A DNA stretch of 64,000 nt, from NCBI GenBank assembly GCA_943354575.1, contig CALRCL010000001.1, forward strand, positions 2,934 to 66,933, read 5' to 3'. Shown here piece after piece: positions 27,611 to 40,703 of the stretch (position 1 is the stretch's first letter; each line of letters opens with the position of its first letter). Source of the stretch: Patescibacteria group bacterium UBA4664. GTDB taxonomy: Bacteria > Patescibacteriota > Saccharimonadia > CAILAD01 > BJGX01. Below the pieces are notes generated by a model. It worked only from the letters and a program-made list of their open reading frames with translations. It ran no database searches and had not been told where the DNA came from. A program made the position numbers and the translations under genes.

Positions 27611-27630
27611 AAAAATAACCCCTGGCGGGG
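27611..27630 (-). terminator. hairpin type T1 (CCCCGCCAGGGG + T-run) immediately 3' of tRNA-Leu
   Basis: On the minus strand, CCCC-GCCA-GGGG followed by TTATTTTTT directly after the tRNA-Leu CCA. Confidence 0.45.
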
Positions 27631-27640
27631 CTACTTTTTA

Positions 27641-27726
27641 TGGTGGGCAAGGAGGGACTCGAACCCTCAATCCTTAAAGGAAACGGATTTTAAGTCCGTC
27701 GTGTATACCAATTCCACCACTCGCCC
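27641..27726 (-). tRNA. tRNA-Leu (anticodon TAA)
   Basis: Manual fold: acceptor GGGCGAG/CTTGCCC, D-arm, anticodon stem ACGGA/TCCGT with loop CTTAAAA, long variable arm, T-arm GAGGG-TTCGAGT-CCCTC, encoded CCA. Confidence 0.9.
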
Positions 27727-27746
27727 ATGGTAGTTGTGTATTCTTA

Positions 27747-27820
27747 TGGAGGCGCGTACCGGATTTGAACCGGTGTAGAAGGTTTTGCAGACCTTTGCCT
27801 AACCACTCGGCCAACGCGCC
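27747..27820 (-). tRNA. tRNA-Cys (anticodon GCA)
   Basis: Manual fold: acceptor GGCGCGT/ACGCGCC, anticodon stem AAGGT/ACCTT with loop CTGCAAA, T-arm ACCGG-TTCAAAT-CCGGT, discriminator U, CCA. Confidence 0.9.
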
Positions 27821-28004
27821 CCGTGCCATATATTATACCTTGCTTGCTTAATCTGTAAAAGGGTAGAAATTTAGCGGACTTTTTGGTATGATTAGTCGCG
27901 TACTTTGCTCTTTCAAATATCCTTAAATGGCACGCTTTTTATAATTCAATTCAAAATTACTAGCCAATTGAATATAAATGCCGTAGCATTATTGAAGTAA
28001 CAAT

Positions 28005-28080
28005 GGCGGGATAGCTCAGTTGGTAGAGCAGTGGCTTGAAGAGCCTCGTGTCCTCGGTTCGAATCCGAGTCTCGCCACCA
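28005..28080 (+). tRNA. tRNA-Phe (anticodon GAA)
   Basis: Manual fold: acceptor GGCGGGA/TCTCGCC, D-arm GCTC-AGTTGGTA-GAGC, anticodon loop TTGAAGA, T-arm CTCGG-TTCGAAT-CCGAG, CCA. One U-U mismatch in the anticodon stem. Confidence 0.85.
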
Positions 28081-28110
28081 AAGATTATTCTTTTAATTAA
28101 ATTACACCAT

Positions 28111-28187
28111 GCGGGTGTAGCTCAGTTGTTTAGAGCGCTTCCTTGCCAAGGAAGAGGTCGAGAGTTAGAGTCTCTTCACCCGCACCA
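28111..28187 (+). tRNA. tRNA-Gly (anticodon GCC), integration target of the downstream island
   Basis: Manual fold: acceptor GCGGGTG/CACCCGC, anticodon stem CTTCC/GGAAG with loop TTGCCAA, CCA. D-loop AGTTGTTTA and T-loop TTAGAGT show a U19:A56 covariation. The last 9 nt are shared with the serine recombinase CDS. Confidence 0.9.
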
Positions 28188-29696
28188 ATTTGCATTATTA
28201 GAGCCTGAAAGGGCTCTTTTATTTTCTTCAATGATTGTTTTATAGGGGTCACGCACATCAAAGTACAGCTTTTTGTCCCACATTTTAATGTTAGAAAGTA
28301 ACATTTTAATCAGCTTCTGTTTTTGAACCTCTGTCGAACATTCAAACAGTTCATTTGAGCGTTGTATCAAATCTAACAGATAGGACGCTGTAATTAGAAA
28401 GTCTTTGTTGCCACTCGTTAGTTTTATCTGTTTATCATTCAAAATCTGTTGCTCGTTGCTTAGGTCTGTAACCATTTCGTCATACAGCTCTTTAGTAATA
28501 CGCCCCTCTAAGTGAGTGTGAGTCAAAGTTTTAATCTTTGCTTTCAGCATGTCGTATTGTTTGCGAGTTTGTTCAAGCGTCTCTGTGTAGTAGAGCTGTT
28601 GTGTATCATGACGCTTACGAAGCTCATTAATGACTTGTTCCAACCCCTCAGCAGGTATAGGTAGTCCGCAGACTATCTCGGCTATTGTAGGCATCATATC
28701 TTTGCCTTGCTCTGAGCTATTCACATTGCCACAGTCGCCTTTAGCACCAGTACACTTCATGTATACATTGCCTCGAGCTGTGTAGGATGAGACTGTGCAA
28801 TTGCAAGCCTTACATCTCACAATTTCCTTAAAAGCAAAGTTCTTGCTTCTATAAGCTGTATGCTGGTCGTGTCTGTCTTTGCGTACCATTTGGCACTTAT
28901 TGAAAAGCTCACGAGTAATGAGAGGCTCATACTTGTGGGGGTATGTATGCCCCATATAAGTCATTAGTCCATGGTAGAAAGGATTTTTTAATATCTTTTC
29001 AGCGTGTGATTTGTTGAGTTTTCTACCAGATTTGCTAAGCAGACCATCTTTGTTTACTTGCTCAGCAATTGCTTCATAGGGCATGCCAGTAGAACGAAGC
29101 TCAAACATCGTAACAATGTGTTTGGCACGCTCTGTATCAACATGTATATCCTTTATTGGTTTTTCCTTAGTACCAAGATTTACATTTACATAGCCAATAG
29201 GTGCATAGCCTACCCAAGTTTTGTTAGCTAGCATTTCATCAAAGCGTCGCTTTACATTATCTCTAATGCTATCTGAATAGTACTTGGCCAATGCCATGCC
29301 AATCCCAAGTCTAAATAGGTCTGTTGCTGGCGATGTCTTGTCTATAAACAAATTGTCAGACGGAAAATGTATTTCAATTTTACCTTGTCGTACAAGAGCG
29401 TTTAGCTCTTTGACTTCTTCTTGGCTACTATCCCTCGTAAAGCGGTCAATTTTATCAAAGACTACTATGCATGGCTCTTTTTGTGACTTGATGTCTTCAA
29501 CTAATTTTGAGAACTCTTTTCTTACATCTACGCTGTGAGCACTCTCGTCAAACTCATGATATTCATACTTACAGTGTTTTTCCTTTGCATACTTTTCTAG
29601 CTTTAGTTTTTGGGCTGGTAGTGCCTTTCGTTGGTCTTTGTCTGATACTCTAGCGATTAAATAATATAACATAATTATCTCCTTATAAGTTAACAT
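28176..29696 (-). CDS. large serine recombinase (phage-type serine integrase)
   Basis: N-terminal resolvase catalytic domain YYLIARVSDKDQ (catalytic Ser), recombinase domain, zinc ribbon CKACNCTVSS...CTGAKGDCGN, coiled-coil C-terminus. C-terminal residues NWCG* are encoded by the tRNA-Gly 3' end. Confidence 0.85.
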   Translation of the reverse strand: MLTYKEIIMLYYLIARVSDKDQRKALPAQKLKLEKYAKEKHCKYEYHEFDESAHSVDVRKEFSKLVEDIKSQKEPCIVVFDKIDRFTRDSSQEEVKELNALVRQGKIEIHFPSDNLFIDKTSPATDLFRLGIGMALAKYYSDSIRDNVKRRFDEMLANKTWVGYAPIGYVNVNLGTKEKPIKDIHVDTERAKHIVTMFELRSTGMPYEAIAEQVNKDGLLSKSGRKLNKSHAEKILKNPFYHGLMTYMGHTYPHKYEPLITRELFNKCQMVRKDRHDQHTAYRSKNFAFKEIVRCKACNCTVSSYTARGNVYMKCTGAKGDCGNVNSSEQGKDMMPTIAEIVCGLPIPAEGLEQVINELRKRHDTQQLYYTETLEQTRKQYDMLKAKIKTLTHTHLEGRITKELYDEMVTDLSNEQQILNDKQIKLTSGNKDFLITASYLLDLIQRSNELFECSTEVQKQKLIKMLLSNIKMWDKKLYFDVRDPYKTIIEENKRALSGSNNANWCG

Positions 29697-29708
29697 TAAT
29701 TACTAGTA

Positions 29709-39863: not shown

Positions 39864-39867
39864 ACAT

Positions 39868-40251
39868 CTATAATAACTGAAGTGCGTGTAGTTCTTTGTC
39901 AGAATAGTTCTCAAACTGGTCATCTGCACTAACGGTTGTCAGTGTCTTTACGCTAAACTCGTCCTTACGCTTACGCTCTAAGTACCACATACTAGTCTTC
40001 ACATCGCCTCTACGAATAGCATTGCAGACAGTGTGCCTTGCTTGAATAATCATGAATAGCTTTGCACGCTCCATTTTGTCCATAAAATGAACATCATCTT
40101 CAAGTCTCTTATAATATGCAGAGCGAGAAACACCAGATATAGAACACGCTTCTTCTACCGTACAACCAATAGCAAATGCCTGTTCTAATTTACGGACAGT
40201 GTCATGGTCAAAGACTGTAGGTCTTCCTCTTGTTTTTGTAGCAACTTTCAT
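39868..40251 (-). CDS. HTH DNA-binding protein (terminase-small-subunit/resolvase-HTH-like)
   Basis: TRGRPTVFDHDTVRKLEQAFAIGCTVEEACSISGVSRSAYYKRL: classic HTH with a GRP lead-in. Forms an operon with the DUF3800 gene. Confidence 0.45.
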   Translation of the reverse strand: MKVATKTRGRPTVFDHDTVRKLEQAFAIGCTVEEACSISGVSRSAYYKRLEDDVHFMDKMERAKLFMIIQARHTVCNAIRRGDVKTSMWYLERKRKDEFSVKTLTTVSADDQFENYSDKELHALQLL

Positions 40252-40430
40252 ATTCCTATTATAGCCCTTTTGTATCTGTTGATGTATAATAATTAGTAAT
40301 AGAGTTCAAGCTGTAACCAAGTCAGGTGATAGACTAAACTCTTGTACCAATTCACGCAACGCATAATCGTCAACTAACTCAATAGATTTAGTTAGAAGTA
40401 TGTCAACTGCGTAGCACCAAAAAAATATAA

Positions 40431-40507
40431 GGGTGATTAGCTCAGTTGGCTAGAGCGCTTCGTTTACACCGAAGATGTCGGGGGTTCGAGTCCCTCATCA
40501 CCCACCA
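40431..40507 (+). tRNA. tRNA-Val (anticodon TAC)
   Basis: Manual fold: acceptor GGGTGAT/ATCACCC, D-arm GCTC-AGTTGGCTA-GAGC, anticodon stem CTTCG/CGAAG with loop TTTACAC, T-arm GGGGG-TTCGAGT-CCCTC, CCA. Confidence 0.9.
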
Positions 40508-40514
40508 TAATAAC

Positions 40515-40541
40515 AGTCCTGCTTGTGCAGGGCTTTTATTA
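40515..40541 (+). terminator. hairpin type T2' (CCTGC-TTGT-GCAGG + T-run) directly after tRNA-Val
   Basis: Near-identical to hairpin T2 at 27451-27468 except for loop nucleotides. Followed by CTTTTATTAT. Confidence 0.5.
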
Positions 40542-40655
40542 TGTTTGAGTGGGCTCGAACACAGGGTTCGGTGTACGAGGAGCGCAGATGTAAATATCAA
40601 GCTTACTTGAATATTTACCGAGCACCGCAGGAAGAAGTCCGCCAGTGGCGGACGC
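40541..40655 (+). repeat. ~115-bp structured repeat element, copy B
   Basis: About 90% identical to the reverse complement of 27496-27609. Same two hairpins, with differing loops (CTTA vs TCA; AGT vs GC). Confidence 0.6.
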
Positions 40656-40659
40656 TATA

Positions 40660-40674
40660 CCTCATCACCCACCA
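40660..40674 (+). repeat. 15-nt duplicate of the tRNA-Val 3' end (CCTCATCACCCACCA)
   Basis: Exact copy of the last 15 nt of the tRNA-Val found 153 bp upstream, directly after repeat copy B. Confidence 0.6.
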
Positions 40675-40683
40675 ATAAAAATA

Positions 40684-40703
40684 CCCCCGCCAGGGGGGTT
40701 TTT
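40684..40703 (+). terminator. hairpin type T1' (CCCCC-GCCA-GGGGG + TTTTT)
   Basis: GC-rich stem followed by a T-run. Homologous to the T1 hairpin beside tRNA-Leu. Confidence 0.5.

Follow-up and report, generated by a model that had tools for sequence, protein, structure and literature searches.

Why should two transfer RNA (tRNA) genes be followed by nearly the same small repeat, and why should the hairpins that flank this repeat stand in opposite order behind the two genes? The question is raised by a stretch of 64,000 nucleotides (nt) from a freshwater bacterium of Saccharibacteria type, Patescibacteria group bacterium UBA4664 (GenBank assembly GCA_943354575.1, contig CALRCL010000001.1, positions 2,934 to 66,933), called the window here and numbered from its first letter. 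ARAGORN and Rfam find six tRNA genes in it. Apart from a lone tRNA-Leu(GAG), they are arranged in two divergent operons, with Cys-Leu(UAA) on the minus strand and Phe-Gly(GCC) plus Val(UAC) on the plus strand. At tRNA-Leu(UAA) (locus A) and at tRNA-Val (locus B), the last tRNA of the operon is followed in the same order by a palindromic terminator, a core, a copy of the tRNA 3' end and a second terminator. From comparison with related loci, the swapped hairpins are better read as the result of a separate history of stacking, loss and module replacement at each tRNA, and not as an exchange between loci A and B. A tRNA-linked-repeat architecture, in which units stack and then decay, probably explains both loci, at a confidence somewhat better than even.

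Locus A lies on the minus strand. The tRNA-Leu(UAA) that ends the Cys-Leu operon (27641..27726; ARAGORN, Rfam tRNA 61 bits) has the T-arm GGGTTCGAGTCCCTC and is followed by the T1 hairpin (27609..27640). T1 is a terminator-like perfect palindrome of 14 base pairs (bp) that includes an A and a U tract (fold -17.4 kcal/mol, z -5.0); its stem-loop is CCCCGCCAGGGG, at 27619-27630. The same hairpin is found 3' of tRNA-Leu in L029, L030 and L035 (compared sequences are cited by such numbers throughout). Next comes the leader of unit A, TGTTTGAGCGGGCTCGATACCCAG (27585..27608), placed by alignments that also show leader types to vary between loci. Core A follows (27495..27584), with a T-loop-like GGTTCGG, the 17-nt GTGTACGAGGAGCGCAG, a central hairpin that covaries, CCGAGCACCGCAGG and a further hairpin, GTCCGCC..GGCGGAC. 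It matches no Rfam family; R1, a covariance model made from eleven core copies, gives 126.9 bits over 27477-27584. The core runs into Leu-dup, GTCCCTCCTTGCCCACCA (27477..27494), which reproduces the 3' end of tRNA-Leu, CCA included, exactly over 18 nt. The locus closes with the T2 hairpin (27442..27476), a 15-bp palindrome (fold -23.6 kcal/mol, z -6.8) that has the same position in L001, and the promoter region of a LemA-family gene lies directly 3' of it.

Locus B lies on the plus strand. The tRNA-Val(UAC) that ends the Phe-Gly-Val operon (40431..40507; ARAGORN, Rfam) has the same T-arm GGGTTCGAGTCCCTC, and in L001 and L029 it is contiguous with tRNA-Gly. A T2-like hairpin (40508..40542; fold -17.2 kcal/mol), again a terminator-like site, opens the intact proximal unit; the T2 hairpin also stands 3' of tRNA-Val in L032, L035 and L037. 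The leader of unit B is GTTTGAGTGGGCTCGAACACAG (40543..40564). Core B (40565..40659) is about 90% identical to core A, and R1 gives 116.9 bits over 40565-40674. It ends in Val-dup, CCTCATCACCCACCA (40660..40674), an exact 15-nt copy of the tRNA-Val 3' end, which is read as the 3'-end segment of an older, displaced unit. A hairpin of T1' type (palindrome 40675-40705; fold -14.6 kcal/mol), terminator-like on both strands, follows with its linker TGGCAGAT (together 40675..40713). This hairpin is near-identical to the tRNA-Val-proximal hairpin plus GGCAGAT in L001 and L004. The last part is a 24-nt stub of an older core, GTGTCTCGAACCCAGGATTCGGTC (40714..40737), which is cut off immediately ahead of the 17-nt GTGTACGAGGAGCGCAG. 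This stub is also the exact place where contigs L047 and L050 break.

The two loci keep their identity of about 90% across leader and core, and the distance from the tRNA end to its copy is 164 nt at locus A (18-nt copy) and 167 nt at locus B (15-nt copy). The repeat unit is about 150-167 nt long and non-coding, with a core of roughly 90-110 nt. Each tRNA with its downstream region holds this unit about 1.3-1.45 times, which is why the core has a terminator on either side and finishes with the copied tRNA 3' end.

Several counts within the window bear on whether the pattern is real. The Leu 18-mer occurs twice where 0.01 occurrences are expected, and the Val 15-mer twice where none is. The T2 hairpins of loci A and B are identical at 32 of 35 positions without a gap, whereas the best unrelated 35-mer of the window reaches 21/35. 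Their local alignment score of 29, against 5.7 +/- 1.2 for shuffled sequences, was reached by 0/2000 shuffles. The 12-nt CCCCGCCAGGGG is identical in T1 of locus A and T1' of locus B and has no other site in the window. Allowing one gap, these two hairpins agree at 25/29 positions (0/2000 shuffles). Without the gap they agree at 23/32, where the background is about 20/32, and the T1 pair is therefore the looser match. All four hairpins are perfect palindromes of 14-15 bp with an A tract and a U tract, a form that is, by its sequence, that of putative bidirectional intrinsic terminators; a terminator consensus scan calls three of the four.

Both loci were also recovered more than once. Two independent assemblies, L045 and L046, give the same sequence for locus B, as L027 and L028 do for locus A, which shows that the arrangement did not arise in assembly; that several contigs stop within the repeat is to be expected of repeated DNA. 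The part order described for loci A and B in an earlier sequence-only reading holds, every piece being found at its place. The claim that each tRNA ends in the hairpin type that closes the other locus stands as well, firmly for the T2 pair and less so for T1, and the likeness of the T2 pair goes well beyond that of generic GC stems. That reading had also placed a partial third core after locus B, at 40705-40730. The partial core is real: CTCGAACCCAGGATTCGGT at 40718-40736 matches the core start at 40554-40572 (two occurrences, none expected), and the stub is collinear with T1', GGCAGATG and core in relatives. Its position needs correcting by about 9 nt to the right, to 40714-40737.

Relatives were surveyed by scans for exact words, using a motif from the 5' part of the core in one genome per species and a motif from the 3' part in metagenomes. 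The former is present in four metagenome-assembled genomes of Patescibacteria/Saccharibacteria, from Lake Baikal and the Experimental Lakes Area. The latter gave 21 matches, which are eight true loci and 13 chance matches in GC-rich unrelated DNA. Further contigs were added through LemA homologues and through the gene downstream of locus B. In the resulting set of about 20 related loci, the core always lies 3' of tRNA-Leu(UAA), tRNA-Val(UAC) or tRNA-Arg(CCU) and in the same orientation. Every true case ends in the 3' end of the local tRNA, copied over 15-18 nt, and the start of the copy is at most 2 nt from the boundary of T-loop and T-stem in the three different tRNAs. Most tRNA-Arg loci have a copy with a 2-nt insertion variant. 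The T-arm GGGTTCGAnTCCCTC is common to all three target tRNAs and is not found in the repeat-free tRNAs of the window, Cys, Phe, Gly and Leu-GAG. The core itself contains GGGTTCGG. Within the core, pairing of the central hairpin is kept through two-sided changes at 6 pairs.

Known RNA families do not account for the core. With its filters off, R1 finds no copies in the 64-kilobase (kb) window beyond the two known. Searches with Rfam 15 covered the window, loci A and B and four relatives, at gathering and at permissive thresholds; only tRNA reaches the gathering score, with no RtT, transfer-messenger RNA (tmRNA), ribozyme, riboswitch, RNase P, signal recognition particle RNA or 6S RNA, and other matches are far below threshold. 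Two candidates were considered and rejected. A tmRNA is suggested by the leader GGGGCTCGAACACAGGGTTCGG, which is like tmRNA 5' ends, and by a tag-like reading frame in the Y module, a segment of some relatives described below; it was rejected because ARAGORN calls no tmRNA, the acceptor pairing is missing and a genome has several copies. A tRNA-like minihelix was set aside on inspection, as no 5' strand complementary to the acceptor 3' strand is present.

The hairpins, in turn, can be found in several orders. T1-core-T2 occurs at window locus A, twice in L001 and in L004; T2-core-T1 at window locus B; and T2-core-T2 in L035, where tRNA-Val is followed by T2, core, 3' copy and T2, so that hairpins of T2 type stand on both sides. 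All three orders exist in related loci, which supports the suggestion of modules (tRNA-3' copy, hairpin, leader plus core) that were duplicated and occur in different combinations, and the hairpins are, on this comparison, interchangeable modules of a repeat unit.

One locus in particular suggests how the order arises. In L001 and L004, T1', GGCAGATG and the core come directly after tRNA-Val. Window positions 40660-40737 align base for base with the tRNA-Val 3' end, T1', GGCAGATG and core start of these two contigs. Because it is collinear with this tRNA-proximal arrangement, the distal half of locus B is a displaced older unit. The T2 hairpin, leader and core in front of it (40508-40659) have the 15-nt tRNA-Val end on both sides. 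In L004 the order of window locus B is mirrored: tRNA-Val is followed by T1', core and copy, and then by T2 and a degenerate core-like stub. Partial second copies of this kind are known from window 40714-40737, L003 and L004.

Sites with less than a full unit have been seen as well. In L030 and L035, tRNA-Leu is followed by T1 and a leader stub without a core, and in L038 and L042, tRNA-Val is followed by another hairpin, likewise without a core. Such core-free sites keep a hairpin, with or without a leader stub, or differ in gene context; no clean empty site was seen among them. At tRNA-Arg the same behaviour involves two other hairpin types: in L003 the tRNA is followed by a unit with hairpin hpX and then one with hpY, and in L018 and L022 by the hpY unit and then a partial hpX.

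An example for rapid change is found within the species of the window itself. L029 belongs to this species (its LemA protein is 100% identical) and has a unit at tRNA-Leu (612-845) with a mosaic core of about 61% identity to that of the window. Its central hairpin is like that of L005 and its 3' part like that of the tRNA-Val locus of L001, while the flanks are otherwise identical to the window. The distal hairpin is rearranged too, with part of another hairpin and a leader stub in place of the 5' half of T2. This mosaic is evidence of very fast local turnover.

The closest known parallel to this arrangement comes from E. coli. The tRNA-linked repeats (TLRs) are part of the widely used rrnB T1-T2 terminator cassette. 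They were described by Egan & Landy (1978) and Rudd (1999) and include RtT (RF00391) and rttR in the tyrT-tyrV operon; 22 are known at ten loci, with 1-5 per locus (PMC8144298). At rrnB the order is 5S, T1, rrB, an 18-bp repeat and T2, with 150-bp spacing (PMC8144298). The small RNA (sRNA) rrB is made by read-through of T1, which is 87% efficient, and T2 is the full stop (Stenum et al. 2021, PMC8144298). Otherwise the function of TLRs in E. coli is unknown (PMC8144298).

The likeness is extensive. Both systems consist of a dispersed repeat directly 3' of a tRNA gene and co-oriented with it, at several tRNA loci. In both, the last nucleotides of the repeat (18-19 in E. coli, 15-18 here) are the 3' end of the upstream tRNA including CCA, the unit is of similar length (150-178 bp against 164-167), and there are iterated or partial copies, 3.14 at tyrT against about 1.3-1.45 here. 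At the tyrV locus of E. coli K-12 (L044, 1285800-1287500), 178-bp units each end in ATCCTTCCCCCACCACCA, and the RtT model scores 133-137 bits. A further shared feature, not found mentioned in PMC8144298, is a split T-arm, whose 5' half precedes the 3' copy by about 70-90 nt. In E. coli, AAGGTTCGA is followed by 69 nt and then ATCCTTCC...CCA; in the window, AGGGTTCG is followed by about 86 nt and then GTCCCTCC...CCA. Because of this, the repeat resembles the 3' part of a tRNA that carries a large insertion in its T-loop.

The systems differ in their host, which is of the Patescibacteria/Saccharibacteria lineage here and not of the Enterobacteria. They also differ in that each unit here brings its own palindromic terminator, of two interchangeable types, and in that relatives of the window have long forms with an apparently invertible module of about 200 nt. 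Since no homology of sequence or structure is detectable, the window repeats are filed as the same structural kind and not as members of the RtT family. In the literature available to the search, no report of TLR-like elements outside Enterobacteria was found.

Among the E. coli repeats, the products rrA, rrB and rrF of rrnA, rrnB and rrnD are the most similar in layout: a stable-RNA gene, a first terminator, a TLR of about 110-150 nt with the 18-bp copy, and a second terminator (PMC8144298). The upstream gene is 5S rRNA there and a tRNA here. Expression and binding to Hfq and CsrA have been shown there, whereas the window units are known from sequence alone. In addition, weak and strong hairpins come in either order here, with T1 before T2 at locus A and T2 before T1' at locus B. 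Also comparable is 3'ETS-leuZ, which, as it is cited in PMC8144298, is a functional sRNA cut from the 3' trailer of glyW-cysT-leuZ by the tRNA-processing machinery. It lies before the terminator, is not a dispersed repeat and is without a copy of the tRNA 3' end.

R1 also has weak best matches on L044, of 3-9 bits and not significant, which fall in register on all four E. coli RtT/TLR copies (911-1034, 1089-1212, 1267-1390 and 1564-1687, minus strand), each ending at the tRNA-3' copy. The register suggests, at the level of the model, a common architecture of a closing helix with the 3' copy, two internal hairpins and a CGAGC spacer.

A mechanism for the evolution of these loci can be proposed along the following lines. 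The unit consists of the last 15-18 nt of the tRNA, a palindromic terminator hairpin, a short leader and a structured core, and hairpins of the T1 and T2 families both serve as its terminator part. New units would be gained beside the tRNA 3' end, and the older, distal ones would decay. At locus A, the T1 unit would be intact and the next one reduced to the tRNA-3' copy and T2. At locus B, an intact T2 unit (40508-40659) would stand ahead of an older T1' unit reduced to the tRNA-3' copy, its hairpin and 24 nt of core. As the boundaries suggest, units are probably gained by recombination in the repeated tRNA-3'/T-arm segment, either through unequal or ectopic homologous exchange or through integration of a circular unit.

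The same layout suggests a role for the product. By analogy with rrB, the first hairpin would stop most tRNA transcripts, and the core would be part of the read-through transcripts. Its tRNA-like end, made up of T-stem 3' strand, acceptor 3' strand, discriminator and CCA, would provide it with the 3'-maturation signals of the tRNA. A core RNA with a 3' end in ...CCA would then be released by the tRNA-processing machinery, the second hairpin being the final stop. Both the function as a read-through sRNA and the mechanism of duplication are thus inferred.

A number of points weigh against this proposal. The predicted helices of the core other than the central hairpin are invariant, so that the fold, and any pairing with the tRNA-3' copy, is not supported by covariation; the covariation of the central hairpin fits a hairpin in DNA equally well. 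For the short cores, a consensus scan gives no sigma-70-like promoter in the stretch that separates the core from the first hairpin. This hairpin is of T2 type at locus B and would have to be leaky there. At this locus, too, insertion of a unit in front is indistinguishable from loss of a more proximal unit from a longer array. T1 and T1' are only loosely alike beyond the 12-nt stem-loop. Lastly, the RtT model has no match at E<=10 in 27380-27760 or 40400-40800 (gathering score 45 bits; E. coli tyrV control 133-137 bits), and R1 gives only 3-9 bits on E. coli TLRs.

Another model for the origin of the units is a miniature integrative element. The unit would be an attP-only circle, or the fused ends of a larger element, integrated at the T-loop or 3' end of a tRNA by an integrase of tyrosine type acting in trans, and the tRNA-3' copy would be attR. 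Stacking would then be tandem accretion, as in arrays of tycheposons or of cis-mobilisable and integrative conjugative elements (CIME/ICE). This model is considered unlikely, although it explains the boundaries and the stacking as well as the repeat architecture does. The copy always starts within 2 nt of the boundary of T-loop and T-stem, in three tRNAs that share a T-arm, and the direct repeats of the tRNA 3' segment bound the inserted DNA at loci A and B as attL and attR would. The newest-looking unit adjoins the tRNA, with decayed units distal to it. Presence and absence vary, and in one species the core has been replaced between near-identical flanks. The long forms of L001, with a segment of about 300-360 nt between two copies of the 17-nt GTGTACGAGGAGCGCAG, are like a nested insertion or a deletion between element-end repeats.

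However, none of the roughly 20 loci adjoins an integrase gene. The window encodes a single recombinase, a large one of serine type; its gene is part of a separate island at tRNA-Gly, and this island is missing in L001 and L029, which still carry units. Three scans of 2.9 million viral contigs gave no copy of the 3' motif of the core or of the Y module, and the only viral match to the core 5' motif, in L026, was a chance one inside a coding sequence for a PhoH-like protein; there is accordingly no phage copy of the core or Y motifs in these scans. Nowhere were genes seen between the 5' and 3' halves of the core, nor was any full-length form. The element would need the correct acceptor strand for three different tRNAs in order to keep each of them intact, and compensation between the two sides of the central hairpin speaks for a structural role of the core sequence itself. 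Tycheposons, the tRNA-targeting integrative elements of Prochlorococcus (bioRxiv 10.1101/2020.12.28.424599), and CIME/ICE accretion are similar in that partial repeats of tRNA 3' ends flank the insert and in that insertion at a tRNA is repeated, with distal remnants and strain differences. They differ in being kilobases long and integrase-encoding or demonstrably mobilised, whereas the unit here is about 150 nt, non-coding and has no integrase partner found.

A related and somewhat more doubtful possibility is that the unit of about 150 nt is a self-contained, non-coding mobile module. Such a module would copy itself to the 3' end of tRNAs bearing GGGTTCGAnTCCCTC, duplicate 15-18 nt and bring its own terminator, so that the tRNA stays functional. 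More speculatively still, the strand complementary to the 3' copy might act as an 18-nt binding site for the tRNA 3' end, similar to a primer-binding site. If a mobile module of this kind exists, the TLRs of E. coli would be the fossil form of the same process, and the stacks, stubs, mosaic cores and long forms with an invertible module would be an active system for working out its mechanism.

The earlier suggestion of past recombination between the loci amounts to a reciprocal crossover or inversion between cores A and B that swapped the flanking hairpins. The cores are indeed inverted repeats of about 90% identity that flank the tRNA cluster, some 13 kb apart (about 0.8 kb without the island). 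Moreover, the leader start TATGTTTGAG, which is not seen in other genomes, is common to both cores after different hairpins and hints at non-reciprocal homogenisation. A crossover within the cores would nonetheless have given tRNA-Leu a Val copy and tRNA-Val a Leu copy, and reciprocal exchange is disfavoured because each 3' copy matches its own tRNA exactly. The distal part of locus B is the tRNA-Val-proximal arrangement of L001 and L004, stub included; T2 lies directly 3' of tRNA-Val in another species too (L032, L035, L037); and the same swap of order is seen at a single tRNA-Arg locus across strains (L003 against L018 and L022). The suggestion is therefore not upheld, and a crossover is very improbable.

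Least credible of all is that the hairpins are generic Rho-independent terminators, alike by composition, or that the repeat was mis-assembled: all four do share an A-tract, GC-stem and T-tract design, T1-versus-T2 comparisons likewise score somewhat above shuffles, and contigs break inside the repeat, but the T2 pair stands far above any other match in the window, hairpin sequences are kept across genomes at matching positions, and both loci recur in independent assemblies, all of which refutes this reading.

Some agents of known type were also considered and rejected. The serine recombinase was rejected as the agent, its island being absent from relatives that still carry units. Casposons, IS200/605 elements, group II introns, integron attC sites and bridge-RNA systems predict a short target duplication or none, terminal inverted repeats or an adjacent enzyme gene. 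These predicted features were not seen here.

Beside the two short units, relatives of the window have longer forms. In L001, both loci have GTGTACGAGGAGCGCAG twice, flanking 300-360 nt with a TATAAT-containing stretch and the Y module of about 200 nt. The pairs lie at 6882-6898 and 7185-7201, and at 5998-5982 and 5618-5602 on the minus strand; the short cores of the window have a single copy. Across loci, GTGTACGAGGAGCGCAG has two alternative continuations, the central hairpin or ATAAAGATTATTTATTTC.... This is how a recombination junction would behave, or a duplication that a nested insertion had left behind.

The Y module is non-coding and can be found in L001 (6918-7126 and 5675-5869), L013 (1697-1888 and 5219-5360), L015 (287-481), L017 (900-1094), L018 (382-576), L021 (78-288) and L022 (3155-3362 and 6677-6818). 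It occurs in both orientations at orthologous loci of tRNA-Arg (L013 compared with L015, L017, L018, L021 and L022) and of tRNA-Asp (L022 compared with L013), with CCACTTTTG(C/G) and CAAAAGTG as short inverted repeats on its two sides. In form it resembles an invertible segment. The window has no Y module, and Rfam, run on L001-L004 and thereby on the Y copies of L001 and L002, gave no match to it.

The strand opposite to the units may carry a signal of its own. At 27498-27513 (plus strand) and 40637-40653 (minus strand), the terminator scan picks out the core hairpin GTCCGCC..GGCGGAC, with TTTTCC or TTCTTCC after it, as terminator-like. On this strand the hairpin comes immediately 3' of the complement of the tRNA 3' end, although several relatives have a poor T tract. 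A short antisense RNA with an 18-nt sequence complementary to the tRNA 3' end may be made there.

Finally, the two loci are held apart by the island already mentioned. It is 12.2 kb long (28188-40419), begins directly after the CCA of tRNA-Gly(GCC) and repeats GCACCA at its right end (40414-40419). It is missing in L029, of the same species, and in L001, where tRNA-Gly adjoins tRNA-Val. It encodes the large serine recombinase (28176-29696, minus strand), whose open reading frame end overlaps the tRNA-Gly 3' end, and a type III-like restriction-modification pair, consisting of a methylase (32441-34621) and a ResIII protein with a TnsA-like C-terminus (34623-37313). Proteins with DUF2779 (37313-38797) and DUF3800 (39090-39929) follow.

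In practice, the units break assemblies and may be taken for att sites of genomic islands. Their wider interest lies in finding the same architecture, with its tRNA 3'-end copy, spacing of about 165 nt, dual terminators and split T-arm, in a Patescibacteria lineage of reduced genomes and with a non-homologous core. On this sequence comparison, the feature is a putative Patescibacteria counterpart of the E. coli TLRs, with a new core sequence and interchangeable terminator modules. The presence of the TLR architecture in a distant phylum on such a core points to a general process at the ends of tRNA operons, or a function for them, and not to an enterobacterial accident. Fast turnover within and between close strains makes the order of events, and possibly the mechanism, accessible to comparative and metatranscriptomic work. 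The main value of these loci would thus be as a natural system for addressing the origin of TLRs.

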